From positions 62,593-126,592 of the IMG/VR virus record IMGVR_UViG_3300035183_000096: 64,000 bases of DNA; one strand, 5' to 3'. The position numbers and the translations under genes are program-made. Below are positions 30,806 through 50,759 of the stretch, one piece after another. How positions within the stretch are numbered: the stretch's first letter is position 1; every line of letters starts with the position of its first letter. Source of the stretch: a virus. The notes below the pieces were generated by a model. The model was not told where the DNA came from and ran no database searches. It saw only the letters and a program-made list of their open reading frames with translations.

Positions 30806-31274
30806 TAACTAATTCCACCATTCTTTTCATTAGACAGGAGGCTATACGATGACCGTTACCACTTCCGGCCAATATAAACTTGGTTTTGTACTTAAGTTGA
30901 AACTCCATCAACTTTGCAAGAATAAGACGTGGGGATATTTTTGCCAAACTCTTCCAATACATTTTTGGTATGCCAGAATTTTCGGGAAAGTTAAGGATGT
31001 CATCCATATTAAACTCTAAGACAACATATGGAAACTCAAACTCCTGTAATCTCTCTAATTCTTTTATAAATCTTGCCTCAAGTATATTGCGGGAAAACTC
31101 TGATGTATTTGCCTTACGCTCAATAACAAATATGTTTTCCAAACCCTTTAACGTATAATCACCAGTTGGTAAGGCTTCAATTACTGTACCATTACACCAA
31201 TCGCAAGGACTAAACATCCATCCATGCCCCTCCTTTTCCCTTGTGTCTCTAACTACTGTATATAGTTTATTCAT
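30753..31274 (-). CDS. ERCC4/XPF-type nuclease
   Basis: DTREK...GDY...IERK motif; probable start at MNKLY. Confidence 0.8.
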   Translation of the reverse strand: MNKLYTVVRDTREKEGHGWMFSPCDWCNGTVIEALPTGDYTLKGLENIFVIERKANTSEFSRNILEARFIKELERLQEFEFPYVVLEFNMDDILNFPENSGIPKMYWKSLAKISPRLILAKLMEFQLKYKTKFILAGSGNGHRIASCLMKRMVELVNEREKERPATKPRRNKK

Positions 31275-32331
31275 TATTATTACACCTTTGAATATCATGA
31301 TTAACCATTTCATAAACAAGTTCATCAAAACTTATAGTAGTCTTCCAACCAAGTTTTTCGCGCGTATAGGTGCTATCACCTAATAAGTACGGCACTTCAA
31401 GTGGACGAATAAACTTAGGGTCTATTTCTACGATTTTAGCAAGAGAAAGGTTAGGAATATAATAAGATGAATGATTTGATAACCATCTTACGAAAACCGC
31501 ATATGCTTTTTCTAAGAACTCTTGTATTGTATGAGTTTCCATAGATGAAAATACAAAGTCTTCGGGCTTATCGAGTTGCATCATACGCCAAAAACCGTCA
31601 ACACAATCGCGGGCGTGCGACCAATCGCGTTTGGTTGTTAATGTACCCAAATGTAGTTTTGGATAGTTCATTTCGCCTGTAAGATTAAAGATAACTTTAT
31701 CGTTTATAATAGCAGCGGCTAACTCACCAAAGTATTTAGTTATCTTACGAGTAACAAAGTTTTCGCCGCGTCTTGGGCTTTCATGATTAAAGCATATGGC
31801 GGACGCCGCATATAAGCCAAAACTCTCTCTATAAACTTTAGTCATTTGGAAAGCCGCTGTTTTAGCAACAGCATAAGGACTACGAGGATTAAAAGGTGTT
31901 GTTATACGTTGGTGCCCATCATCATCACAGGCATCGCCGAACTGTTCGCTAGAACCAGCATAAAAGTAACGGGTATCAGGCTTAATGGTGCGAATTGCTT
32001 CAAGACAATTTAAGCACCCTACCGCGGTAGATTGAAAACACGATGAAGGTTCAGCCCAACTAATGTGAACGTGACTCATAGCGGCAAAATTGTATATTTC
32101 ATCCGGCTTAACTTCGCTTATGATTCGAGTAACAGAACCGGCGTCAGTTACATCGCCGCTATGTAAATGAATTTGATTTAATACTTTAGGCTCAAATCTG
32201 GTTGTATTTGGTACTGAGGTGCGTCTAGCCACACCATGTACGTCATATCCTTTAGCAAGAAGGAAATCAGTCATATATGAGCCATCTTGTCCTGTGATTC
32301 CGAATATCAACGCTTTCTTTTTATTCACCAT
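31267..32331 (-). CDS. gmd: GDP-mannose 4,6-dehydratase
   Basis: GITGQDGSY, PDEIYNFAAMSHV, SPYAVAK, FNHESPRRGENFVTRKIT and RDWSHA motifs. Confidence 0.95.
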   Translation of the reverse strand: MVNKKKALIFGITGQDGSYMTDFLLAKGYDVHGVARRTSVPNTTRFEPKVLNQIHLHSGDVTDAGSVTRIISEVKPDEIYNFAAMSHVHISWAEPSSCFQSTAVGCLNCLEAIRTIKPDTRYFYAGSSEQFGDACDDDGHQRITTPFNPRSPYAVAKTAAFQMTKVYRESFGLYAASAICFNHESPRRGENFVTRKITKYFGELAAAIINDKVIFNLTGEMNYPKLHLGTLTTKRDWSHARDCVDGFWRMMQLDKPEDFVFSSMETHTIQEFLEKAYAVFVRWLSNHSSYYIPNLSLAKIVEIDPKFIRPLEVPYLLGDSTYTREKLGWKTTISFDELVYEMVNHDIQRCNNNE

Positions 32332-33136
32332 CGCCCTCTTCTTCCTCTAACATTTGAATGGTTTTAGAACATAATATGGGCTGGTCAACAAGCCCATCCA
32401 TGTATTTATGAGGCTTAGCCAGCCTTTTTAATTCTCTCTCGCCAGCCATCCTCATTAGTTCCATCTCTTCGCCCTCGTGTTTTCTGAAGGATTCATTATC
32501 AAACGCCCTTAATAACTCAACGACTTCCTTCTTTGCGCCTTCTTCATTCTTGCGAATCTGGTCCCTAGTGCCCTTAATATCCCTAATTTGCTTCTGCCAC
32601 TTATCCATATAATCATTAACGTTGGCAACGACCCTAGTTAATGCGGCGCGAGTATTAGTTATAAGCTCGTGTAACTTAGCTATTCTGGGCTTCTTAACCT
32701 TTTCTTCATCCAGGCTATCATCATTACGAACCTCTTCTATTTCAAGTTGCCAGGCAATTATGCTATCTTCCATTTGCTTACGCTGAATGAGTGTTTTACT
32801 GATTAACAATTCATAAGTTACGGCCAATACTATTTGACTACGTTCACTTGGCTTAATATCATTCTTGAACTGTAACGTAAGCTCTACATACTTATGTTCA
32901 AAAATAGCCATTTCGTCTTCAGCGAATTGTCTTTTGATTTGATTGTATTCTGGCCTATTTCTGAAGTCAGCAATAATCTCTTGAGCCTCTTCATAATTCT
33001 CCTCCTCTTTCATTACACTTATGATAAAGTCTTCGGTGCGGTCTAACATTATAGCTATTTCTGCTGGCGTCTTCTTTCTTGCGTTATCTCTTATTGTTTT
33101 AATTTCCGTAGCACTTGGTCTTCCACGTTTAGGCAT
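32321..33136 (-). CDS. Putative terminase small subunit
   Basis: N-terminal HTH-like segment and coiled coil, upstream of terL in the same operon. Confidence 0.4.
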   Translation of the reverse strand: MPKRGRPSATEIKTIRDNARKKTPAEIAIMLDRTEDFIISVMKEEENYEEAQEIIADFRNRPEYNQIKRQFAEDEMAIFEHKYVELTLQFKNDIKPSERSQIVLAVTYELLISKTLIQRKQMEDSIIAWQLEIEEVRNDDSLDEEKVKKPRIAKLHELITNTRAALTRVVANVNDYMDKWQKQIRDIKGTRDQIRKNEEGAKKEVVELLRAFDNESFRKHEGEEMELMRMAGERELKRLAKPHKYMDGLVDQPILCSKTIQMLEEEEGDGE

Positions 33137-33734
33137 TCTTCCTCACCTCAAATATCGTTGCTATATACCTTTGTAACTTCTCCCTCTCAGTTTTCCGTAA
33201 CTTTCCACCGCCCTTAGCCTTTTCCCAAAAAACTTGAAGAGTTTTAGGTAGATTACGCTCAATTATCGCTATGATTTCACGGAGTTCCACGTCCTTAACC
33301 ACAGAAGATTTTTTGGAGATTTGACTATCGAAAATGAGACTTATATCAACTGGATAGAGTAAACCTTGTTTGTTAGCATTACGTCTAGTCCAATTAGCAA
33401 ATTTAATACAAGACATTCTATCCTCAAATGCTGCACATTTGTTTCGAGACTTATCATAGAATGGGCAGCCTACGCACGGCGGCTCACTACGCTTATATTT
33501 ATTACGTTTTAGATTTATAAGACGACTTAAGACAACTGTATATAGAAAGTTCTCTAGCGGCCTCTTATTATCATACCTCTCTTCGGACAACGCTTTTATT
33601 GCTTCATAGCGCGCTTCTTGCTTCATATCCTCTACGTCATAATAACCGAACTTAAACTTAGGAGCTAATATAGCCACTACCTTCTCTATGGCCGCCAACA
33701 CCTGTTGTTCGGTCATTCCTGGTGGAATTACCAT
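33129..33734 (-). CDS. Phage sigma-factor-like protein with a Cys cluster
   Basis: Region-2-like EDMKQEARYEAIKAL...YD...LENFLY motif and a CxxC...C...C insert. Confidence 0.7.
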   Translation of the reverse strand: MVIPPGMTEQQVLAAIEKVVAILAPKFKFGYYDVEDMKQEARYEAIKALSEERYDNKRPLENFLYTVVLSRLINLKRNKYKRSEPPCVGCPFYDKSRNKCAAFEDRMSCIKFANWTRRNANKQGLLYPVDISLIFDSQISKKSSVVKDVELREIIAIIERNLPKTLQVFWEKAKGGGKLRKTEREKLQRYIATIFEVRKNA

Positions 33735-34893: not shown

Positions 34894-35002
34894 ATTGTCG
34901 CCTGACCAGGCGGCGAAAAAAAAGAAAAAAAACTGAATCCTATAGTAATTTCCAGCATCTATATATATGTATGAGGCAACCGGTAGGCAGAAAGGAGCAT
35001 CT

Positions 35003-35263
35003 ATGGCTAGAGTAAAGGTAGAGGACCGGCGGCTTGACCGCCGGCTACTCAGCGTCGATAACCTACGCCCCGGCGAATCTATGGTTGCCGAACTTTCCAC
35101 CATTGGTGACCTTGACGGGCAGGTCGGGGTCGTAATGCGGACGGCGTTTAACCCTCCGGAACTGCACTTCTTGACTGAAGAAGGCCAGTTCGTAAAACTC
35201 GGTGTTGACACCGAGTTCTACAAATCATATTGCTGCGTAACCGTACAAAACGTGTGGTATTAA
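35003..35263 (+). CDS. Hypothetical protein, paralog family member 1
   Basis: AAGGAG SD; shares V(K/T)(V/I)...L.(P/A)G(E/S)SMV...G..G..M...FY with the ORFs at 35798 and 36077. Confidence 0.75.
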   Translation: MARVKVEDRRLDRRLLSVDNLRPGESMVAELSTIGDLDGQVGVVMRTAFNPPELHFLTEEGQFVKLGVDTEFYKSYCCVTVQNVWY

Positions 35264-35270
35264 CCACATG

Positions 35271-35347
35271 GCAGAGGGGGCACGGGGAGCACGCCCCGTG
35301 CTTAATGCGGGCACCCTTACGGTGAGGGTGCACGGTCCCAACTCCGC
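35271..35347 (+). ncRNA. Twister self-cleaving ribozyme (P5-type permutation), copy A
   Basis: GCA-GAGGG-[GGCACGGGG/CCCCGTGCT]-TAA-TGC-GG-[P3 GCACCCTTA/TGAGGGTGC]-ACGG-TCCC-AA-CT-CCG. Conserved twister elements are present; predicted cleavage between 35303 and 35304. Confidence 0.85.
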
Positions 35348-35362
35348 TCCAAGGGGAAAATC

Positions 35363-35704
35363 GTGGTCACTCTGACAGCAGAGGCCGATTACGGCCTCAG
35401 CGGCCAGTACATCGCCCAGATTACTGGCCGGGACAAGAAGTATGTTTTTAGTCGGGAATTCGTAGGCCGCAAATGCGGCCGCCGTAATGAAACAACAGAA
35501 GCCCGCGTCGATGACGCTGGGCTTTACGAAGTCTGTAATGCCACAAGACACGGCAAGAACAGCCGTTTTGTGGTATTAGCCGAAGTGGGTGGCGAACTCC
35601 GGGTAATTAAGATTACCCGGGAACAAGCCATGAAAATTGCAAAGGCCCTGGATGACGGCCAGGATTTTGCGGACTTAGTCCGCGACCTGGCCACCGCACC
35701 TTGA
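35363..35704 (+). CDS. Hypothetical protein
   Basis: GTG start after an AAGGGG SD, immediately 3' of twister A. Confidence 0.7.
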   Translation: MVTLTAEADYGLSGQYIAQITGRDKKYVFSREFVGRKCGRRNETTEARVDDAGLYEVCNATRHGKNSRFVVLAEVGGELRVIKITREQAMKIAKALDDGQDFADLVRDLATAP

Positions 35705-35714
35705 CAAAGAGGTA

Positions 35715-35748
35715 GGGGGCGGATATATTATTATACCCGCCCCTTTTT
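35715..35748 (+). terminator. Intrinsic terminator (repeat copy 2)
   Basis: GGGGGCGGATATA-TTAT-TATACCCGCCCC-TTTTT. Confidence 0.7.
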
Positions 35749-35797
35749 ATGGGGTCAGTAGGAAACCAGTCCTGTTCCACCCGAAAGGAGGAAACTG

Positions 35798-36073
35798 ATG
35801 GTGTTCGTAAAAGTTGAAGATTCGGAACGTCGCGAGCGAAGCCGGCTGCTTTACTCGGAAGACCTACAGGCCGGTTCGTCTATGGTGGTAGGAATATCAT
35901 CCTATTCCAGGGGCCTCAATGGGGTTACTGGGATATTGATGAAGCCGATTATTGACTCAGGCAAACTATACTTCTTCCACTCGGAAGAAGGCCGGATTTG
36001 GGAATTAGGTGGGGATGTATTGTTTTACCCATCTACTTCAACAATTAGTGTAAAAAATGCAAAAGGAGGATAA
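35798..36073 (+). CDS. Hypothetical protein, paralog family member 2
   Basis: AAGGAGG SD; similar to the 35003 and 36077 ORFs. Confidence 0.75.
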   Translation: MVFVKVEDSERRERSRLLYSEDLQAGSSMVVGISSYSRGLNGVTGILMKPIIDSGKLYFFHSEEGRIWELGGDVLFYPSTSTISVKNAKGG

Positions 36074-36076
36074 TAA

Positions 36077-36334
36077 ATGGCAAAAGTGACAATTGATAAC
36101 CAGCAAAAGAGGCAAATATTTACTGTGCATGACCTTAAACCGGGCGAATCCATGGTTGTCGAACTTCGTACCGTAGATGATGCCGACGGAAGAACAGGCA
36201 TCATCATGAAGACGCCGTTTTGCCCAACCAGTCTTTTTTTTCTGACTGCGGAAGGGGAATTCCATCATTTGTCCAATGATACAGTCTTTTATAAATCAAA
36301 AAATAAGGTAATAGTGGAAAATGCTCCAGAATGA
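36077..36334 (+). CDS. Hypothetical protein, paralog family member 3
   Basis: AAGGAGG SD; DLKPGESMVVEL versus NLRPGESMVAEL in the 35003 ORF. Confidence 0.75.
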   Translation: MAKVTIDNQQKRQIFTVHDLKPGESMVVELRTVDDADGRTGIIMKTPFCPTSLFFLTAEGEFHHLSNDTVFYKSKNKVIVENAPE

Positions 36335-36335
36335 C

Positions 36336-36412
36336 GCAGAGGGGGCACGGGGAACACGCCCCGTGCTTAATGCAGACGCCCTTATCGTAAGGGCGTGCGG
36401 TCCCAACTCCGT
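36336..36412 (+). ncRNA. Twister self-cleaving ribozyme (P5-type permutation), copy B
   Basis: GCA-GAGGG-[GGCACGGGG/CCCCGTGCT]-TAA-TGC-AG-[P3 ACGCCCTTA/TAAGGGCGT]-GCGG-TCCC-AA-CT-CCG. Compensatory changes relative to copy A; predicted cleavage between 36368 and 36369. Confidence 0.85.
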
Positions 36413-36428
36413 TATAAAGGGGTGAAAG

Positions 36429-37178
36429 ATGTTAAGCTTCACCAAGGGGAACAAAAAACTTCGCGTCCACAATGGCCTGTGGACATTCAGCTTACCCGCG
36501 GGGCATAGCTGTCCCGGTGCCTTAGACTGCCTGTCTAAGGCTGACCCTGAAACTGGTAAAGTGCGGGACGGGCGTAGCACCAAGTTCCGGTGCTACGCCA
36601 CCAGTGAGGAAGCATTTAAGCCCAGCGTCAGAGTGTCACGCTGGAACAATTTTAAGCAAGTGAAAAGGATGCTATCACAAAAAGACGGCGTCCATAAACT
36701 TGCCGACTTAATCAATGCCAGCCTTCCGAAGAAGGCAAGAATTATCCGGATTCACGCATCCGGAGACTTTTTTAACTATGAATACATGAAAGCTTGGCAC
36801 ATTGTTGCCGAACGTAACCCGGACATTTTATTCTATGGCTACACGAAATCCTTAGACTTTTGGGTTCGTTTAGAAAGGGAATATGCCGGATTGGCACATA
36901 ATTTTGTGCTCACCGCCAGCGTTGGCGGGAGGCATGATTGGATGATTGAGGCACGACGACTGCAAAAAGCAGTTGTGGTGTTCAGTGAGGAAGAGGCCCA
37001 AAGCCTCGGACTCCCTATCGACCACGACGACACGCACGCTATGCGTCGGCAGGGCGATTTTGCCCTGTTGATTCACGGGGTTCAGCCAGCCGGTACCCCG
37101 GCGGCAAAGGCCCTGGCTAAACTCAAAAGCCAGGGGTATAATAAAAATCGTCGGCTCGCTCTACCAATGGTAGGGTAA
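36429..37178 (+). CDS. Phage gp88-like protein
   Basis: GNKKL...FSLPAGHSCPGA..C...CYA and RIHASGDF...YGYTKS motifs. Confidence 0.7.
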   Translation: MLSFTKGNKKLRVHNGLWTFSLPAGHSCPGALDCLSKADPETGKVRDGRSTKFRCYATSEEAFKPSVRVSRWNNFKQVKRMLSQKDGVHKLADLINASLPKKARIIRIHASGDFFNYEYMKAWHIVAERNPDILFYGYTKSLDFWVRLEREYAGLAHNFVLTASVGGRHDWMIEARRLQKAVVVFSEEEAQSLGLPIDHDDTHAMRRQGDFALLIHGVQPAGTPAAKALAKLKSQGYNKNRRLALPMVG

Positions 37179-39313: not shown

Positions 39314-39871
39314 ATGATTAAAAATAAAATTAGGATTTGTTTATATGGTGGGCCGGGTATAGGAAAATCAACATTGGCTCATACTCTCATTTCGCGTCTC
39401 AAACAAGAGTTTCCTGCTCTTAATGCTGAGTTTGTGGATGAATGGGTCAAGCAATGGGCTTATGAGGGTAAGAGACCTACCGGCTGGGACCAACTATTTA
39501 TATTTGGCAATCAGGTACACAAAGAAGAAAGGTTATTGAAGAATGGCATAGACCTTATTATTGCGGATAGTCCAGTTCTTTTACAATGCTGTTATATGCA
39601 CGGCCTTCCGTTTCAACAACAACTTATAGAACTTTCTCAGATGTTTGATAAACAATTTCCTGCTATCCACGTTCTACTTGAACGACAAGACTTTGGTAAT
39701 TTTAATACTGTTGGCCGTTATCAATCCAATCTTGAAGAGAGTTTGGCTAAAGATAGAGAGATTGAAGAAATTGTAGAAAAACGCGCTATCGGTCAGATTG
39801 TAAAAGTGAAAGTTAGTAACGGAGATTACTTATACAACCATATCGTTAGTAATCTCGATTTTTCCCATTGA
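39314..39871 (+). CDS. P-loop kinase/ATPase (NadR-like AAA_28 type)
   Basis: GGPGIGKST Walker A, EWVKQWA and DSP motifs. Confidence 0.75.
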   Translation: MIKNKIRICLYGGPGIGKSTLAHTLISRLKQEFPALNAEFVDEWVKQWAYEGKRPTGWDQLFIFGNQVHKEERLLKNGIDLIIADSPVLLQCCYMHGLPFQQQLIELSQMFDKQFPAIHVLLERQDFGNFNTVGRYQSNLEESLAKDREIEEIVEKRAIGQIVKVKVSNGDYLYNHIVSNLDFSH

Positions 39872-39995: not shown

Positions 39996-40069
39996 GGCGA
40001 GGTAGCCCAACGGTAGGAGGCACTACGCTTAGAACGTAGGTAGTGTGGGTTCGAGTCCCTCCCTCGCTA
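39996..40069 (+). tRNA. tRNA-Leu(UAG), short variable loop
   Basis: Acceptor GGCGAGG/CCTCGCT, anticodon arm CTACG-CTTAGAA-CGTAG, T-loop TTCGAGT. Confidence 0.85.
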
Positions 40070-40074
40070 CTTAT

Positions 40075-40147
40075 GGGAGCGTAGGCCAAAAGAAGAGTCA
40101 GCGGACTTAAAATCCGTACAGTGCGGGTGCAAGACCCGCCGCTCCTA
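40075..40147 (+). tRNA. tRNA-Leu(UAA), short variable loop
   Basis: Acceptor GGGAGCG/CGCTCCT, anticodon arm GCGGA-CTTAAAA-TCCGT, T arm GCGGG-TGCAAGA-CCCGC. Confidence 0.8.
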
Positions 40148-41034: not shown

Positions 41035-42018
41035 ATGTTAGCTGTACAAAGGTACCTTATAAACGGCAAGAGTCTAACGGACCTTAAGGCCGAATACGGC
41101 ATTGAAGTTACAGAACATCCTACTGAACCTTTAGTTATCCTAAACTATAACCAAATTGAGTCTCCTAAGAATGAAATCATCGCTCAGGAATGCCGCGCCC
41201 TTACCTTAGAAAAGGACACCTGGAATGTTGTTGCTCGCTCTTTTACCAGGTTCTTCAACTATGGTGAAATGGTGGATTTGACTTCTAAGTTTAATTGGAA
41301 TAAGTTTGAGGTTACATCTAAGGAAGATGGCTCCCTTATGGTTATGTATAACTACAAAGGTACCTGGCGAGTCAACACACGGGGAAGTTTCGCAAAGGGT
41401 AATGTATGTGATGGTGGACCCACTTGGGAAAATCTATTCTTTGATGCCCTTGGCGGCGTTAAAGTCGCCAATGAACTCCTAAGCCCCCAATCTTCCTTTG
41501 TGTTTGAACTATGCTCCCCGTGGAATAAGGTTGTGCGTCAATATACTAAGCCTACTCTTTTCTTGCTTACTATCTTCAACAAGGATTTGGACGCTACTTT
41601 CGAGGGTGTTGTGTGTCGTGATAATACTAACATGCGTATTAAGGTTAAGAATGCACGTTATATTAGCTTACACACACTAAAGGGTAATAATAATATCTTC
41701 TTGAACAAAAATCTTGTTCCTTTTGTGCTTGCTGGTGAAGGTTCTGAGCTACTTACCTACTTCCCAGAAGTTCGTCAAAAGTATGAGAGGATTGAAACAA
41801 TTATAAACAACGCAAAGTCTGAACTGGTAAGGATTTGGGACGAAGCGAAATACATTGAAAATCAAAAAGATTTCGCCCAATTCATCCTACCAAAAACACG
41901 ACTTTCAAGTATATTATTTGAAGCACGTAAACTCAAGAAACATCCACTTGATGTATGGAAAGAAAGTCCGGAACGAGCACTATCTTTTGTAGAGTCAAAC
42001 ATAAAGGAGACAGTATAA
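41035..42018 (+). CDS. T4 Rnl1-like RNA ligase
   Basis: ECRAL, RFFNYGE, motif I KEDGSL, FELCSP.N, motif IV EGVV, motif V KVK. Confidence 0.85.
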   Translation: MLAVQRYLINGKSLTDLKAEYGIEVTEHPTEPLVILNYNQIESPKNEIIAQECRALTLEKDTWNVVARSFTRFFNYGEMVDLTSKFNWNKFEVTSKEDGSLMVMYNYKGTWRVNTRGSFAKGNVCDGGPTWENLFFDALGGVKVANELLSPQSSFVFELCSPWNKVVRQYTKPTLFLLTIFNKDLDATFEGVVCRDNTNMRIKVKNARYISLHTLKGNNNIFLNKNLVPFVLAGEGSELLTYFPEVRQKYERIETIINNAKSELVRIWDEAKYIENQKDFAQFILPKTRLSSILFEARKLKKHPLDVWKESPERALSFVESNIKETV

Positions 42019-43039: not shown

Positions 43040-43059
43040 CAAAAGAAAGGTTGTGTATA

Positions 43060-44052
43060 ATGAAATCAACGTATAAGGCAGAAGTTGTCAAAATCCATAT
43101 GGAAACCCACCCTAATGCTGACAAGCTATCTATCGTTAGGGTCTTTGGTGGTTATACAGTTTGTGTAAATAAGGAAGAATGGAAAGAGGGTCAACTAGCT
43201 GTTTATATTGTTCCAGACACTATTGTAGATACTACTCGTCCTGAGTTTGCTTTCTTGGCTGCTGATTGTAAGACCGGAGATAAGTATTACAGGGTTAAGG
43301 CTAAGAAACTACGTCAAGTTCCGAGCTTTGGTGTGTTGGTACCAGCCCCAGAAGGAGCTAAAGAGGGTGATGACTTATTTGATGTTCTAGGGCTTACTCA
43401 TTACGAACCTGAAACTCCTGCTATTACTGGCTGTGATGAGGTTACCCCTCCCGCCGCCAACATTCCTAAGTATGATATTGACAACATTAAGAGATATGTT
43501 GACAAATTCACAAAGGGTGAAACAGTAGTAGTAACTGAAAAGATTCACGGAGCTAATGCTCGTTATACCTTTCATGATGGCCAAATGTACTGTGGAAGCC
43601 GTACAGGTTGGAAGAAAGAAGACGAACGTAGTATTTGGTGGAAAGCCCTTCTCGCTAATCCTCAAATAGAAGAGTTCTGCAAAGCTCATCCAGAATACGC
43701 TCTATACGGAGAGGTATATGGTCAAGTTCAAGACTTGAGGTATGGCACCAAACCCGGCGAAGTTAAGTTTGCCGCTTTTGACATCTGGGATAAGAATAAT
43801 GCAAAGTGGTTGAACTGGAGGGAGATGGAACATTACAACAACGTATATAACATTCCAGTTGTGCCTTTGGTTGCAGTTACTAACTTCAACATAGACATCA
43901 TTCTTTCCATTGCTGAAGGTCAAAGTCTTATTCCAGGGGCTAATCACACTCGTGAAGGTGTTGTAGTCAAGCCGATAGAGGAGCGTACCGACCTTGAGAT
44001 TGGTCGTGTTATCCTTAAGTGTGTAAGCCTTGGATACTTAACTCGTAAGTAA
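43060..44052 (+). CDS. RNA ligase, DRB0094/Rnl5 family with an N-terminal OB domain
   Basis: HPNADKL OB-fold start, motif I TEKIHGAN, YGEVYG, FAAFDI, REGVVVKP, LKCVS..YL. Confidence 0.9.
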   Translation: MKSTYKAEVVKIHMETHPNADKLSIVRVFGGYTVCVNKEEWKEGQLAVYIVPDTIVDTTRPEFAFLAADCKTGDKYYRVKAKKLRQVPSFGVLVPAPEGAKEGDDLFDVLGLTHYEPETPAITGCDEVTPPAANIPKYDIDNIKRYVDKFTKGETVVVTEKIHGANARYTFHDGQMYCGSRTGWKKEDERSIWWKALLANPQIEEFCKAHPEYALYGEVYGQVQDLRYGTKPGEVKFAAFDIWDKNNAKWLNWREMEHYNNVYNIPVVPLVAVTNFNIDIILSIAEGQSLIPGANHTREGVVVKPIEERTDLEIGRVILKCVSLGYLTRK

Positions 44053-44903: not shown

Positions 44904-45022
44904 ATTATGTACGACAAAAAATGGTTAAACGCCGGTAAACCAGAGGGGCGTAGCCTAGCTGGAAGTAATGAGCTTTGGTTAAGTATTCAAGTTTGAGCAA
45001 AAGGGAAAATAGGTGGTTTGGG

Positions 45023-46069
45023 ATGTCAAAAAAGAGACTATTATACATAAGTTGTCATGAAGTCCTAGAACACGATGAGCTTCGTATCTTTCATGAACTT
45101 GGTTTTGATGTATTTAGTATAGGCTACTGGATGAATCCTCATAAGCCCACAACGAATATGAGGCCCGCCATACCTGAGTTAAGCGTAAACCAAGAATTGA
45201 TAGATAAGTTTAATCGTGATTATCCTGAATATAAGCCACCGAAGGCTGAGTTTATGACCGGGCGAGTTGCTTTACGAAAGGACTTCCTAGATAACTTTGA
45301 TGTTATAGTAAGCTGCTGGTATCCTGACAACCTCACGCACATTCTCAAGAATGCTGGCGACAAGCCTGTAATTCACAGAACAATTGACATTATCAATAGT
45401 AGAGTTGAAGACTACATAACTGGTCTATATATGCGTGCAAGACCATTTTTTATGGTTCGTATGTCTGAAATGGAAGTTATCCAGCTTAAGCCCGCTATTA
45501 AATGCCAAGCCATCATCCGTCAATGTGTAGAGATTGATAAATATAAGGGATGGGTAGGCACAGAAAAACAAGTATTTACTAACATTAAGGCTATGAAGAA
45601 AAGGCCCGACATCCTAGATGACATTTATGAAATTGTAACAAGTAATCATAAGAGAGTGCTGGTTGGTGCAGAAAACGAAGGCATACCTTATGCTAAATGT
45701 AGTGTGCCAGAGGATGAGTTCATAAGTTTAATGCAAAAGTCTCGCGTAAATTATGTTCAACCAAGATTGGGGGCGGCTATTACTTATAGTTTTATGGAAG
45801 CCCTTAGTTGTGGTTGCCCTATAGTGACATTAGGCACTAAATTTAATGGACCCAATTGGGAAGCCGGTTTTTTTATTAAGAATGGACTCAACGGTTTTTG
45901 TGTAAATACTATTGATGAGGCTATATCCTATATAGACCTGCTTATGAAAGACGATAACCTCGCCCACTCAATCTCCCAAAAAGCTCGTAAGACGGCTATA
46001 GATAATTTTAATTATCCTGTAGCTAAAGAGGGTTGGGCGAAGCTTATGAAAGAAACGGGGGTTCAATGA
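45023..46069 (+). CDS. Glycosyltransferase (GT4/GT-B)
   Basis: FMEALSCGCPIV, NGLNGF and ARKTAIDNF motifs. Confidence 0.85.
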   Translation: MSKKRLLYISCHEVLEHDELRIFHELGFDVFSIGYWMNPHKPTTNMRPAIPELSVNQELIDKFNRDYPEYKPPKAEFMTGRVALRKDFLDNFDVIVSCWYPDNLTHILKNAGDKPVIHRTIDIINSRVEDYITGLYMRARPFFMVRMSEMEVIQLKPAIKCQAIIRQCVEIDKYKGWVGTEKQVFTNIKAMKKRPDILDDIYEIVTSNHKRVLVGAENEGIPYAKCSVPEDEFISLMQKSRVNYVQPRLGAAITYSFMEALSCGCPIVTLGTKFNGPNWEAGFFIKNGLNGFCVNTIDEAISYIDLLMKDDNLAHSISQKARKTAIDNFNYPVAKEGWAKLMKETGVQ

Positions 46070-46728
46070 AACTACTTGAAGAATTAGGCTTAACAATGTT
46101 ACCATCTAAGCTATTTGGTCTTACGGCAAGACCGACTTACCAACCGAGATATAGCGACAACGAATCCTCGCCACATCCAGTGCTTCATAAATTCTATAAT
46201 AAAAGCCAACAGGATAATAGCCCAAGAGTAATGGCCAAAGTAAAGGAAGTTGTAGAGGGATTACCGAATGGTTATGGCATACTCGAAATAGGTGTTGCCT
46301 TATACAAACCAGAATATTCATTTAGTTATCATCTAATGAATCATAAACCTGAAAATACCATATATTTAGGGGTGGACTTAGAAGACAAGAGTTTCCTTAA
46401 TCAGCCGGACAAGAAAGTTTATACCTTACGCACAAATTCTGCTAATCAGGCAGAGATTAGATTGGCTATAAGAAGATTTGGCATAGAACAACTTAGCCTA
46501 CTTGTGATTGACGGCTGCCACTCCCTAAATATGGCAATAAACGATTGGGCTTATGTTGACTTACTTATGCCGGGCGGTATAGTATTGATACACGACACTA
46601 ACACTTGGTTTGGACCTGTCGCTTTAGTAAACTCTATAGATAGAACTATGTTTGACGTAGAAATGTTCTTTAGAGAATACGACGACGACTACGGCCTTAC
46701 ATTAGCCAGAATTCGGTGTAATACATAA
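46066..46728 (+). CDS. Class I SAM-dependent methyltransferase (Methyltransf_24-like)
   Basis: ILEIGV, GVDL, LLVIDGCHS and PGGIVLIHDT motifs. Confidence 0.8.
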   Translation: MKLLEELGLTMLPSKLFGLTARPTYQPRYSDNESSPHPVLHKFYNKSQQDNSPRVMAKVKEVVEGLPNGYGILEIGVALYKPEYSFSYHLMNHKPENTIYLGVDLEDKSFLNQPDKKVYTLRTNSANQAEIRLAIRRFGIEQLSLLVIDGCHSLNMAINDWAYVDLLMPGGIVLIHDTNTWFGPVALVNSIDRTMFDVEMFFREYDDDYGLTLARIRCNT

Positions 46729-46743
46729 TTAGCAAAAGGAAAG

Positions 46744-47098
46744 ATGTCTATGGGAAGAAAGACGGAGAAATAGTAACAGCTTTACCAACTATCGTGCAAG
46801 CCGGTTCTTTTATGCTGTTCTAACGCCGGCATCTGTCCGCCATCACCTTGCCATATTCCCGGCAAGGGTGTAACTGCCAGAGAGTAGCCAAACTCTCAAT
46901 GGGATAACAAGTAATACGAGTTGCTTGGGGCACGAAATAGTCTTGGTTTCGTCAAAAAAAAAGAAAATTGGGGGCACTGTCCTACCTGACAACCCCCGAC
47001 CAAACGGACGAAAGCAAGTGTTCTTTAGATGGCAAAAATCCATAGGCATTACTAAGACAATCGCAATACCCCAAACGGCAATACTTAATGCGTTTGGG
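46744..47098 (+). ncRNA. Candidate large structured RNA (unassigned)
   Basis: 10-bp closing stem ATGTCTATGG/CCATAGGCAT enclosing at least 6 hairpins, in a ~400-nt gap without a credible ORF. Confidence 0.5.
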
Positions 47099-47132
47099 AT
47101 ATAAAGGACTCGGTATGTCTATAGGAGAAAGA

Positions 47133-48050
47133 ATGCGTAGTTTATTACTTGGCGCTGGGCGTAGGGTGAGCTTTGCATCCGCTTTGTCTGAATACAGCGA
47201 GGTTTATAGTTATGAGATTGAAGAGAATGTGCCAATTAGTTGTGTGGCTAAAGTAATTAAGGGTAAGTCATGGAAAGATGAAGATATTTTATCAGACATC
47301 TACAAAAAGATTATAGACCTTGGTATAGATGTTATAATTCCGCTGGATGACGCGGCCACCGTGTTATGCACTCAACTCAAACCCTTATCAAATAAGCACT
47401 TCTGGCCGGTGGTTTCCTCAAACTTTACCACAAACACTTGTTATGATAAATCGCGCTTTGAATTATTTTTCCGAAATCATCTACCATTGATGTATCCGTG
47501 GGCAAATCCAGGTCAACCAGCCATCATCAAACCTATTCATGGTTATGGGAGCCGTGGAATCTTTACCGTGGATAGGTATGATAAGTATGATTTTGAACGT
47601 AAACATAGTGCCACACATATAGCACAGAAATTTATAAAAGGACAAGAATATAGTGTTGACGCATACTTCGGACGTAACGGCAAGATGATAGACGCTATAC
47701 CTCGCACTAGACTCAGAGTGGCTAATGGAGAAGTATTGGATAGTCAGACGGTATATCATGAACTTATGATTCAGAAGGTGGAAGAAATACATAGCTACCT
47801 TCAATTCAGGGGACCAATTTGTTTACAGTTCATAGAAGAGGAATTTAGTAAGTACATCTACATTATGGAGATAAATGCAAGGTTTGGTGGTGGATGCATA
47901 TTATCTATGGAAGCTGGCGTACCTATGCTTAGGTTTATTAGGGATGAATGGCAAAATGGCGAAACCCATCATATACCTTTTAAGTGGAGAAGAGGTTTGC
48001 TAATGAGGCGGGTAAACAGAGAGTTCTTTTTCACTAACTCTAAGGTGTAA
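47133..48050 (+). CDS. ATP-grasp protein (carbamoyl-phosphate-synthase-like, typical of sugar-modification clusters)
   Basis: IIKPIHGYGSRGI, QKFIKGQEYSVD and EINARFGGG motifs. Confidence 0.85.
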   Translation: MRSLLLGAGRRVSFASALSEYSEVYSYEIEENVPISCVAKVIKGKSWKDEDILSDIYKKIIDLGIDVIIPLDDAATVLCTQLKPLSNKHFWPVVSSNFTTNTCYDKSRFELFFRNHLPLMYPWANPGQPAIIKPIHGYGSRGIFTVDRYDKYDFERKHSATHIAQKFIKGQEYSVDAYFGRNGKMIDAIPRTRLRVANGEVLDSQTVYHELMIQKVEEIHSYLQFRGPICLQFIEEEFSKYIYIMEINARFGGGCILSMEAGVPMLRFIRDEWQNGETHHIPFKWRRGLLMRRVNREFFFTNSKV

Positions 48051-48052
48051 AC

Positions 48053-48361
48053 ATGAAGATAGGCGTTGATATCGACGGCGTGCTATGTGAAGATAGGATT
48101 AGAGAGGAACGCTCAATAGCCAAGCCATTGTATGGGGCTAAAGAGCGTATAAATAAGTGGTACTATGATGGTCATGAAATCATACTATTCACAGCTAGAA
48201 CATGGTCAGAATACAATATGACTAAGTGTTGGTTGGACGCAAACGGCTTTAAGTATCACATACTAATATGTGGTAAACCTATGTTTGATATATTTATAGA
48301 TGATAGAGCTGTCTCAAGCCTTAACGACCCTAAGTTAAAGGAGAAGCTCAATGAAGTATAA
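48053..48361 (+). CDS. HAD-family phosphatase (capsule-biosynthesis type)
   Basis: DIDGV, FTAR and GKP..D.FIDDRA motifs. Confidence 0.85.
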   Translation: MKIGVDIDGVLCEDRIREERSIAKPLYGAKERINKWYYDGHEIILFTARTWSEYNMTKCWLDANGFKYHILICGKPMFDIFIDDRAVSSLNDPKLKEKLNEV

Positions 48362-49091
48362 ACTGGGAATATGCTCATTGTTTAGAGATAGTATGCAATG
48401 GGGTGGCATACATATCAATCATATAGAAAGGTACTTTCATCAGATAGAGTCTCAAACCAATCTTAATCAAAACGAGATTGGTTTTTTCTTACTAGAGGGA
48501 GATTCCAAAGATAATACGGCCGACACCCTCAAAATTTATGCAAGCGAAAGAAATAATGTAAAAATATTCCATCAATCCGCAACTTACGGAATGGTTACTT
48601 CAACTGATGACCCAAACAGAATAGCCTCGGTTAGTAGGCTTGGTACAAGATTGATAAATGAGGCCAAAGAACATTGTCAATATGTTATGTTCGTTGAGTC
48701 CGACCTTATTATGCCCGACAACTTAATCTCTACTTTGCTTAGCGATATTGAACAACTGAAGGCTGGGATTGTAGCACCAATAGCGATGCTTTACGCCCAA
48801 AATATCTTCTATGACACCTGGGCTTTCCGTAACCTAGATGATAGTCGTTGGCAGGGCCATCATCCATTTTCCCATGTTATCGACCAGTATGAAAGATTTA
48901 TACCTATGAAATCGGTTGGCTCTTGTGCTATAATAGATGGAGAGGCTCTCCGTAAAGGTGCTAACTTTAATGAAGGCGCTTTTGTGGAGCTATGTAATAA
49001 CGTGCGTAGCTTAGGGTATGAAATATATGCTGACAAACTTTTGCGTATATGGCATCCCTCAAGTAGTCTAGTTAATGGTAGGTGGGTATGA
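48351..49091 (+). CDS. Glycosyltransferase (GT-A, ANP1/GT2-like)
   Basis: EGDSKDNT, ESDL, FYDTWAFR and SVGSC motifs. Confidence 0.7.
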   Translation: MKYKLGICSLFRDSMQWGGIHINHIERYFHQIESQTNLNQNEIGFFLLEGDSKDNTADTLKIYASERNNVKIFHQSATYGMVTSTDDPNRIASVSRLGTRLINEAKEHCQYVMFVESDLIMPDNLISTLLSDIEQLKAGIVAPIAMLYAQNIFYDTWAFRNLDDSRWQGHHPFSHVIDQYERFIPMKSVGSCAIIDGEALRKGANFNEGAFVELCNNVRSLGYEIYADKLLRIWHPSSSLVNGRWV

Positions 49092-50176
49092 TAAGGACAT
49101 ATTCTCCGATAATAGCTAAGAATCAAGTAAAGTATGTAAACGATTGCCTAGAAAGCAATATGCTCACATTTCATGGTAAATATGTTCGTGAATTTGAAGA
49201 GAGGTTGGCCGACTATATAGGCACTAAGCATTGTATTACAACTTTCAACGGCTCAGTATCCCTATTTGCTATATTACATTGTATTAAGCCACAACACCAT
49301 CGCCCCTGTATATTCACATCTTCTATGACTTATGTAGCCACAGTAAGCCAAAGTATATTAGCGGGATATGAACCGATACTAATAGATTGTGATAGCAACT
49401 TTCAAATGGACCTAAATAAGTTAGAGGACGCATGTAAGACATTCGGCGGCGTTAAAATTCTTCTTCTACCTCAATTATACGCTGATACGGCAAACATCAG
49501 GGAGGTTATAAGACTGTGTGATAAGTATAATCTCACTTTGCTTGAGGATTCCGCTGAAGCCTTTGGTTGTAAAACTATGGACAAACATCTTGGAACATTT
49601 GGGCTAGCGGGTTCATTTTCTTTCTTTGCTAATAAAATAATAACTTGTGGTGAGGGCGGATGTATAGTTACAGATGATGATATACTAGCTGAGAAACTTC
49701 GTCTATTTAAGAATCAGGCCAACATAGGTTACTATCGTCATGACGGCGCAGGTTCCAACTTCAGAATGACTAACATACAAGCCGCTATAGGTTTAGCTCA
49801 ACTGGAAGAAATCGACTTTATTTTAGAACAAAAAGCCTTGATAGCCGCCGCCTATCGTGCTAAAATTTCAAAAAAAGTGCAAGCAGTGGTGCCGCAAAAC
49901 GCCAAATCCTCTGAATGGATGCCGGTGTTTAAGTTACCATATAATGTAAACTATCTCGATTTTGATAGACACTGCAAACAAAATGATATTGAAACAAGGC
50001 CTGGTTTTATGCCAGTACATCTAATGGATGGGTTCAGACAACTAAAAAGAACTGATTTATCTATGTGTGAGTCTATGGTAGATAGATACTTTATACTACC
50101 ATGTGGCCCAACACTTACGAACGCGGAAAGAAACTCAATCATTAAGGTTGTAAATAGTTATTTTGAAAGGAAATAA
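49088..50176 (+). CDS. DegT/DnrJ PLP aminotransferase (perosamine synthase-like)
   Basis: EDSAEAFG, SFFANKIITCGEGG and NFRMTNIQAAIGLAQLE motifs. Confidence 0.9.
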   Translation: MIRTYSPIIAKNQVKYVNDCLESNMLTFHGKYVREFEERLADYIGTKHCITTFNGSVSLFAILHCIKPQHHRPCIFTSSMTYVATVSQSILAGYEPILIDCDSNFQMDLNKLEDACKTFGGVKILLLPQLYADTANIREVIRLCDKYNLTLLEDSAEAFGCKTMDKHLGTFGLAGSFSFFANKIITCGEGGCIVTDDDILAEKLRLFKNQANIGYYRHDGAGSNFRMTNIQAAIGLAQLEEIDFILEQKALIAAAYRAKISKKVQAVVPQNAKSSEWMPVFKLPYNVNYLDFDRHCKQNDIETRPGFMPVHLMDGFRQLKRTDLSMCESMVDRYFILPCGPTLTNAERNSIIKVVNSYFERK

Positions 50177-50177
50177 C

Positions 50178-50759
50178 ATGAACTTTTGGTTTACAAGCGA
50201 TTTTCATTTTGGTCACGCCAACATCATTAAGTATAGTAACAGGCCGTTTGTTGACACAATTGAGATGGACGAAACAATTCTCCGCAATCTTAACCGCAAG
50301 GTAAAACCGGACGACATCCTATACTTTCTTGGCGATTTCCTTTTCGGCCAAGACAAGATTAGAAGGTTTTTCAATTACCGTTCCCGCATTAAATGCAACA
50401 ACATTATCGCTATTTGGGGCAATCATGACGATGTTATCCGTAAGGACAACAACATTCGCCAAGCCTTTAGTTGGAGTGGTGACTTCAAAGAGGCTTTCCC
50501 AGGCGGTAAACGTATTACACTATGCCATTACGCCATGAAGATTTGGAATAAATCCCATCATAGAGCGTACCACCTCTACGGCCACAGTCATGGCTCTCTA
50601 CCTGACGACCCAACATCATGTAGTTTCGATGTTGGTGTAGATACAGAGCTATTTGGTCACACTAGGTTTACGCCTTACAGCCTGGAAGAGGTTGTAGAAA
50701 TTATGACCAAACATAAAAGGTTTGTGCCTGTGGACCATCATAACACTATAACTAAGTAA
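50178..50759 (+). CDS. Calcineurin-like metallophosphoesterase
   Basis: SDFHFGH, LGD, GNHD, HY and GHSH motifs. Confidence 0.9.
   Translation: MNFWFTSDFHFGHANIIKYSNRPFVDTIEMDETILRNLNRKVKPDDILYFLGDFLFGQDKIRRFFNYRSRIKCNNIIAIWGNHDDVIRKDNNIRQAFSWSGDFKEAFPGGKRITLCHYAMKIWNKSHHRAYHLYGHSHGSLPDDPTSCSFDVGVDTELFGHTRFTPYSLEEVVEIMTKHKRFVPVDHHNTITK

Follow-up and report, generated by a model that had tools for sequence, protein, structure and literature searches.

We have analysed two closely similar repeats that lie between small genes of a phage genome and that match the Twister-P5 family of self-cleaving ribozymes. They are found in a 64-kilobase (kb) stretch of DNA, referred to here as the window, which comprises bases 62593-126592 of the 126,592-base-pair (bp) IMG/VR virus record IMGVR_UViG_3300035183_000096. 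The record has direct terminal repeats and is estimated to be 100% complete, and a search of sequencing runs found the window DNA in two microbial-mat metagenome runs. No cultured phage resembling the 33-41 kb stretch was found beyond matches at the level of transfer RNA (tRNA). A preliminary description of this DNA had placed the repeats on the plus strand, 1065 nucleotides (nt) apart, and this is where they lie, the corresponding Rfam hits spanning 78 nt each. The repeats and the genes that enclose them are the following:

34967..35263, + strand: small gene, paralog 1, taken from the open reading frame (ORF) list; TAA stop at 35261-35263, ending 7 nt before copy A
35270..35347, + strand: twister copy A (type P5, with P3), Rfam RF02684, 36.9 bits
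35363..35704, + strand: 113-amino-acid gene directly 3' of copy A; GTG start, Shine-Dalgarno (SD)-like AAGGGG at 35352-35357
35714..35750, + strand: terminator-like hairpin of 9+4 bp followed by UUUUU, after the 113-amino-acid gene and between the two ribozymes
35798..36073, + strand: small gene, paralog 2, abutting paralog 3 and with no ribozyme behind it
36077..36334, + strand: small gene, paralog 3; TGA stop at 36332-36334, ending 1 nt before the GCAGAGGG of copy B
36335..36412, + strand: twister copy B (type P5, with P3), Rfam RF02684, 40.6 bits; same layout as copy A, shifted by 1065
36429..37178, + strand: GP88-family gene (PF17338) directly 3' of copy B; Pfam expect value (E) 3.1e-40, SD-like GGGGTGA at about 36418-36424

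Covariance models place both repeats in the twister class. In a cmscan search against 4227 families, Twister-P5 (RF02684, gathering score 37.6 bits) was the family reported for both copies out of the twister clan (CL00120). Copy B scored above the gathering score and covered model positions 1-58 of 58, and the score loss of copy A is due to its P3 insertion and to two outer pairs. Scanning of the whole window gave E-values of 5.2e-5 for copy B and 4.6e-4 for copy A, the latter reaching 1.2e-5 in a local scan. The absence of any covariance-model match, which the preliminary description had named as the outcome that would count against twister identity, was thus not what we obtained. Also, the pattern of the 5' half, expected 0.01 times per window according to 100 shuffles, was found twice. 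No extra or degenerate twister copies were detected in the window, and hammerhead, twister-sister, pistol, hatchet and hepatitis delta virus (HDV)-like ribozymes gave no match in the window (E ≤ 1), in 35000-36700 (E ≤ 10) or in the remaining half of the genome (E ≤ 0.1).

The twister class reportedly goes back to Roth et al. 2014. As outlined in PMC5408937, its features are the helices P1, P2 and P4, the pseudoknots T1 and T2, some ten nucleotides of L1 and L4 that are strongly conserved, and a U-A cleavage site by P1; T1 consists of three Watson-Crick pairs plus an A.A between L1 and L4, and T2 connects L2 with two bulged nucleotides of L4. In the window these parts correspond to the following positions:

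35271-35273 with 35306-35308, + strand: P2, 3 pairs in both copies
35274-35278, + strand: L1/T1 strand GAGGG
35279-35302, + strand: P1 hairpin, 9 canonical pairs, the outermost G.U
35303/35304 (U/A, copy A) and 36368/36369 (U/A, copy B), + strand: predicted scissile bond, directly after the P1 3' strand
35309-35310 with 35342-35343, + strand: T2
35311-35331 (copy A) and 36376-36396 (copy B), + strand: P3, 9 pairs and a 3-nt loop
A35332, + strand: unpaired linker
35333-35335 with 35344-35346, + strand: P4, 3 pairs in both copies
35336-35343, + strand: L4
G35276-78 with C35337-39, + strand: predicted T1, with A35275 opposite A35340, and likewise in copy B

A pair-by-pair check found all pairs of P1, P2, P3, P4, T1 and T2 in both copies, with the core motifs intact. 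The T2 pairs are G.U and G-C in copy A, A-U and G-C in copy B. Within L1, the UAAUGC segment and L4, both copies agree with the upper-case positions of the Rfam consensus, apart from the covarying T2 dinucleotides. The order GCA-GAGGG-(P1)-UAA-UGC-RG-(9-bp P3)-CGG-UCCCAA-CU-CCG, as first described, is therefore correct except for one unpaired nucleotide between P3 and P4 (A35332 / G36397) that had been left out, and the cleavage sites predicted at that time agree with those indicated by the model alignment. Since P1 and P3 are closed hairpins and the ends are at the position of P5, the elements have the type-P5 circular permutation. The minimum-energy fold of the copy B 78-mer alone is exactly P2+P1+P3+P4 (-40.4 kcal/mol, z = -3.7). 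For copy A, and for folds including the flanks, the T1 complementarity is drawn as a nested helix, as is to be expected of a folding program unable to draw pseudoknots. The flanked folds also suggested a P5 stem hiding the downstream SD, a candidate that was rejected on the basis of 94 instances compared with mismatched-flank controls: flank pairing of at least 4 bp occurred in 4 of the 94 instances and in 3.4% of the controls, and the flank duplex energy was -5.22 compared with -5.40 kcal/mol (p = 0.52). As no P5 stem exists beyond chance, 'type P5' means here only that the ends are located at the P5 position.

These results bear on whether the repeats could be ordinary intergenic hairpins, such as terminators or nuclease sites, that resemble a twister by chance. 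When considered as intrinsic terminators, P1 is followed by UUAAUGC and P3 by A/G-CGG, so that neither hairpin precedes a U-run, and the plus-strand terminator scan lists nothing inside either element. Two independent covariance-model matches (E of 5e-5 and 5e-4 per window), a full invariant core with both pseudoknots complementary and the low expected number of 5'-half patterns likewise oppose a chance resemblance. What such a reading has in its favour is that copy A falls just under the Rfam gathering score and that cleavage is a prediction only; we consider it extremely improbable. Both elements are almost certainly true twister folds.

The invariant-core pattern was found in 87 stretches of IMG/VR contigs, giving 93 unique instances, which become 95 with the two window copies and 96 when the metagenome locus L097 is added. 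The sequence of P1 is different in all 96, and its pairs 2-5 are canonical in 93-96 of them. A linker of P3 length is present in 17/96, most copies of other phages being without P3. Twister-P5 matches at E ≤ 0.01 were obtained in five viral records, G001-G005 (15, 9, 7, 9 and 6 matches), where they are clustered on one strand. The five records were reached via loci L014, L017, L052, L068 and L075; four of them are at least 90% complete, and the arrays are packed in ∼5-10 kb, far denser than in the window. Bacterial genome assemblies of many phyla, nearly all being metagenome-assembled genomes (MAGs), contained 25 stretches with the core pattern.

The form of the window copies can be read against this family. 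The preliminary description had taken the lack of a nucleotide between P2 and T2 as a deviation; the comparison does not support this, because T2 comes directly after a 3-bp P2 in 84 of the 95 instances, which makes it the majority form in phages. In the Rfam consensus, the equivalent of the absent nucleotide is a fourth P2 pair, which is canonical in 31/95 and absent in 64/95 phage and window instances, and a shifted T2 register was seen in 11/95. The variants of T2 among the 95 are AC/GU, GC/GC, AG/CU and GG/CC, and it is the T2 sequence that is the rare feature, with a CU 3' strand in only 4/95. The combination of an RG/CU T2 with P3 gave 0 matches in viral contigs and 0 in genome contigs; the only other member found was L097, whose P3 sequence is entirely different. 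Two more metagenome loci, L098 and L099, were tried as kin and rejected for lacking the 5' half, so that of three metagenome matches only L097 is a twister.

Base pairing across the family was evaluated in an alignment of the best 150 matches by model, which contained 117 distinct rows and did not include the window copies. Pairs occupied 97.3% of cells compared with 72.4% in shuffles, and the covariation score was 0.582 compared with 0.141 (0/500 shuffles) and with 0.04-0.09 when partners were slid. These counts include T1 and T2, which are absent from the aligning model. P1, P2 and P4 all covary across the 117 distinct phage instances; T1 pairs in 99.7% of cells, two of its three pairs showing changes on both sides within the family, and T2 pairs in 93.2%.

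Within the window, the copies are identical at 66 of 78 nt (85%), and none of the 12 differences breaks a pair. From copy A to copy B, P3 pair 1 changes from G-C to A-U and pair 3 from A-U to G-C, both sides being changed in each; P3 pair 8 (U.G to U-A) and the T2 pair (G.U to A-U) are changed on one side with pairing kept. The compensatory P3 changes and the change in T2 had been reported in the preliminary description and hold pair by pair. The six other differences lie in loops, in the linker or at the ends. The flanks of the ribozymes are about 50-56% identical between copies and the proteins encoded upstream 40-47% identical, which means that conservation is much higher in the ribozymes than around them. 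The compensatory changes in P3 show that the fold was kept while the copies diverged; P1 is almost identical in both, and copying or gene conversion may have played a part.

Recent copying or gene conversion would also fit a selfish or neutral self-cleaving repeat, that is, a cassette spread by recombination within or between phage genomes with no regulatory benefit, since P1 and the core are nearly identical between copies and the flanks are not. The wide occurrence of this form, across many viral contigs that are unrelated and across MAGs from many phyla, agrees with such spread. So does the fact that GP88 homologues (49-63% identity) in three other viral contigs have no ribozyme within 3 kb of any of them. 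We nevertheless regard this explanation as unlikely, because the P3 changes show that structure was kept and because most instances are strictly specific in strand and position, being adjacent to a stop codon and 5' of an SD.

This placement is the most regular feature of the phage twisters. Both window copies share their strand with the ORFs on either side; the stops are 7 nt (TAA) and 1 nt (TGA) before the GCAGAGGG motif, and SD-like sequences, AAGGGG and AAAGGGGTGA, begin 5 nt after P4, before the GTG at 35363 and the ATG at 36429, respectively. A start 1-7 nt after a stop codon and an end just before the next SD, as originally noted, thus apply to both copies. Placement was then counted for the 93 unique viral instances, using same-strand upstream stops of ORFs of at least 50 codons. 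The upstream stop was at most 2 nt from the ribozyme start in 60/93 instances, compared with 60/1860 (3%) random positions and 1/93 antisense. Between 2 nt inside and 10 nt before the start, the counts were 74/93, 147/1860 and 8/93, respectively. In 77/93, an ORF of 50 codons or more started within 45 nt downstream of P4. In 30/93 phage twisters (IMG/VR loci L003-L089), the last base of the upstream gene's TAG stop is at the same time the first G of the ribozyme, leaving no spacer. Roth et al. 2014 and Felletti et al. 2017 aside, the literature searched does not address this abutment of twisters to stop codons, and we do not claim that it is unpublished.

A ribozyme that starts so close to a stop codon might be unfolded by the ribosome. 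A terminating ribosome would then cover and unfold P2, the T1 strand and the beginning of P1, and the RNA would be cut only if the upstream gene is untranslated or before the first ribosome arrives, so that processing would be coupled to translation. The ribosome footprint reaches beyond the A site, which, together with the stop-codon counts given above and the 7 and 1 nt of the window copies, is consistent with such gating. However, a compact genome alone would lead one to expect spacing just as tight, and twister is a fast-cleaving ribozyme whose cut could well take place co-transcriptionally, ahead of the ribosome. Both translation-gated cutting and the coupling it would entail appear to us improbable.

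As to the neighbouring genes, the three small paralogs (85-98 amino acids) share 40-47% amino-acid identity and 21 invariant columns, and a twister stands behind the first and the third. They belong to no Pfam or PHROG family, and no tblastn-confirmed relative of them was found in viral contigs. Alignment with its paralogs indicates that the true start of paralog 1 is probably the ATG at 35003. The product of the 113-amino-acid gene (35363..35704) weakly matches phrog_26647, of unknown function.

The ribozymes are placed 1.4-2.5 kb into a rightward non-structural cluster, beyond a switch of strand and GC skew at ∼33.8-34.0 kb. This cluster contains small genes of unknown function, the GP88-family gene, tRNAs, two RNA ligases, a protease, sugar-modifying enzymes and a phosphoesterase, and it diverges from the terminase/portal/capsid cluster. 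The leftward genes upstream encode the terminase large subunit, the portal, the major head and cement proteins, a GDP-mannose dehydratase and a sigma-like protein. The preliminary description had spoken of an early region; this is plausible, as the ribozymes sit in a rightward cluster that diverges from the structural genes. At 33129-33734 (- strand), heading the leftward structural cluster, is a 201-amino-acid protein with weak matches to sigma-70 region 2 and to phage sigma factors, below the Pfam cut-off. The GDP-mannose 4,6-dehydratase (E 6e-102) is at 31267-32331 (- strand), and 44975-50176 (+ strand) encodes two glycosyltransferase-like proteins, a DegT/DnrJ aminotransferase (E 2.5e-76), an ATP-grasp protein and a methyltransferase-like protein; these sugar-nucleotide and glycosylation genes may serve modification of the host surface or of phage DNA or proteins. 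At the start of the phage genome, L090 (G000:C1) 216-1968 holds a run of tRNA-like matches including two strong tRNAs, as well as several weak tRNA, tRNA-Sec and transfer-messenger RNA (tmRNA)-fragment matches below gathering scores.

The hairpin between the ribozymes (35714-35750) has a folding energy of -25.1 kcal/mol (z = -4.06; 0/200 shuffles as good) and is not listed by a simple terminator scan. It overlaps a promoter-like TTGACA-17-TATATT at 35701-35729 (+ strand) that is a near-consensus sigma-70-like match (11 of 12 positions) and has its -10 element in the hairpin loop. The segment 35701-35755 (+ strand) may thus be a terminator-promoter junction between two units.

Our analysis establishes the identity, structure, conservation and placement of the two elements. 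On this basis, we consider it likely that they are genuine type-P5 twisters that cut co-transcriptionally and separate neighbouring cistrons of the rightward messages. The ribozymes would be transcribed within rightward (+ strand) non-structural messages, and each would fold on leaving the polymerase and cut itself at the U/A of its UAA loop (35303/35304 and 36368/36369). That cleavage of this kind takes place in vivo is very likely. The cistron of the upstream small gene would then extend 33-40 nt beyond its stop codon and finish with the G+C-rich P1 hairpin of 9 bp, bearing a 2',3'-cyclic phosphate. On the other side of the cut, the downstream cistron would have a 5'-OH end and seven free nucleotides, followed by P3, P4/T2 and, 5 nt after P4, the SD, so that the folded P3/P4/T2 module would sit just ahead of the downstream SD. 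By self-cutting between cistrons, neighbouring genes transcribed from one promoter would be uncoupled and could differ in lifetime and translation. Given what is generally known of how bacterial 3' exonucleases and poly(A) polymerase behave, the P1 hairpin ending in a cyclic phosphate would be expected to resist decay, and effects on stability and translation may follow.

Several points weigh against this interpretation. No RNA run holding the stretch was among the sequencing-run matches. Copy A is 0.7 bits below the gathering score. A covariance model without P3 that we built for this analysis (R1) gave the window copies 25.5 and 23.3 bits, with the alignment cut off inside P3; these low scores are a limit of R1, which was not used to judge the window copies, yet they mark them as atypical members. 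Any effect of the 5'-OH depends on the ribonucleases (RNases) of the host, and RNase J1 is said to degrade the 5'-OH product of glmS (Collins et al. 2007). The terminator-like hairpin behind the gene that follows copy A would make for a short unit, and therefore the two copies may not share one transcript and may belong to successive transcription units. Finally, a 2019 review regards the biological role of these ribozymes as still undefined (PMC6765202). The idea that hammerhead and twister ribozymes, both bacterial and phage-associated, process polycistronic RNA has already been put forward (PMC6765202, PMC3088659, PMC4604425), and cleavage of ∼2-kb polycistronic RNAs by tandem hammerheads has been demonstrated in vitro (PMC3088659). 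Messenger RNA (mRNA) processing by the window copies is thus the standard published hypothesis, not a new one.

The same strand cluster encodes enzymes that could act on the ends of cleaved RNA:

41035-42018, + strand: Rnl1-like RNA ligase, PF09511, E 4e-17
43051-44052, + strand: second RNA ligase, PF09414 with PHA02142 OB fold, E 6e-30

A P-loop AAA_28/thymidylate-kinase-like protein and a metallophosphoesterase are encoded on the plus strand as well. Together with the ligases they make up a candidate set for RNA healing and sealing, which shares the strand cluster of the ribozymes and occupies 39314-39871, 41035-42018, 43051-44052 and 50163-50759. The genes of this set adjoin two phage tRNAs at 39996-40147.

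The ends left by the ribozymes might accordingly be healed and sealed, that is, re-joined or circularised, by the phage's own RNA repair enzymes. The 2',3'-cyclic phosphate and 5'-OH ends of twister products, as described in PMC8782182, and the presence of two RNA ligases, the P-loop protein and the metallophosphoesterase in one cluster would suit such a role. The PF09414 ligase, however, is found in 0/5 of the twister-rich phage records (G001-G005); PF09511 is also found in 0/5 of them, but its control matched in no genome and this blank carries no weight. Moreover, phage RNA ligases beside phage tRNAs are conventionally interpreted as serving tRNA repair against host anticodon nucleases, and the terminator-like hairpin lies between the two copies. 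In the most elaborate form of this idea, two cuts would release a 1065-nt RNA (35304-36368) carrying three small ORFs, with the 3' half of copy A at its 5' end and the 5' half of copy B at its 3' end. Because P2 and T1 are identical in the two copies, these halves could reassemble into one nicked twister holding the ends, and the ligases, P-loop protein and phosphoesterase, encoded 4.6-15 kb downstream, could seal the nick. Sealing of ribozyme ends in general is very improbable, and we give equally little credence to an exonuclease-proof circular mRNA made by the phage.

Cutting between cistrons, which we favour, has counterparts in other systems. In the early mRNA of phage T7, RNase III sites, which are intercistronic hairpins, cut a long transcript into hairpin-ended monocistronic mRNAs. 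T7 uses a host protein nuclease that leaves a 5'-phosphate and a 3'-OH, whereas a twister would cut itself and leave a 5'-OH and a 2',3'-cyclic phosphate. Type-P5 twisters of RF02684 share with the window copies P1/P2/P4, T1/T2, the invariant L1/L4 nucleotides, the U/A site, the closed P1 and the ends at P5. The window copies differ from them in a long 9-bp P3, which is an insertion for the Rfam model, in an RG/CU T2 (4/95) instead of the usual GC/GC or AC/GU, in a P2 of 3 pairs instead of 4, in having no P5 stem and in the score of copy A, 0.7 bits under the gathering score. The twister arrays of phages G001-G005 have the same ribozyme form, gene strand, abutting stop and SD and start just 3', but they comprise 6-15 copies in ∼5-10 kb, compared with two copies in the window phage. 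The tandem hammerheads that Perreault et al. (2011, PMC3088659) describe in prophage-like polycistronic RNAs resemble the present case in that several ribozymes flank small genes near phage genes and in their proposed role in mRNA processing; ∼2-kb polycistronic transcripts were cleaved by them in vitro. They are of another ribozyme class and fold, no hammerhead being found in the window phage. In the synthetic pRAP, as presented in PMC9872166, ribozymes between cistrons also split a polycistronic RNA into separately translated messages, but this system is engineered, not natural.

The class, its permutations, the link to phage genes and the processing idea have all been published already, and this phage is a clean two-copy case with an unusual T2/P3 variant. 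A two-copy phage with RNA ligases in the same cluster leaves existing knowledge unchanged. Complete phage genomes whose ribozymes occupy fixed positions, with a stop codon on one side and a ribosome-binding site on the other, are well suited to examining the mRNA-processing idea for genomically encoded twisters.

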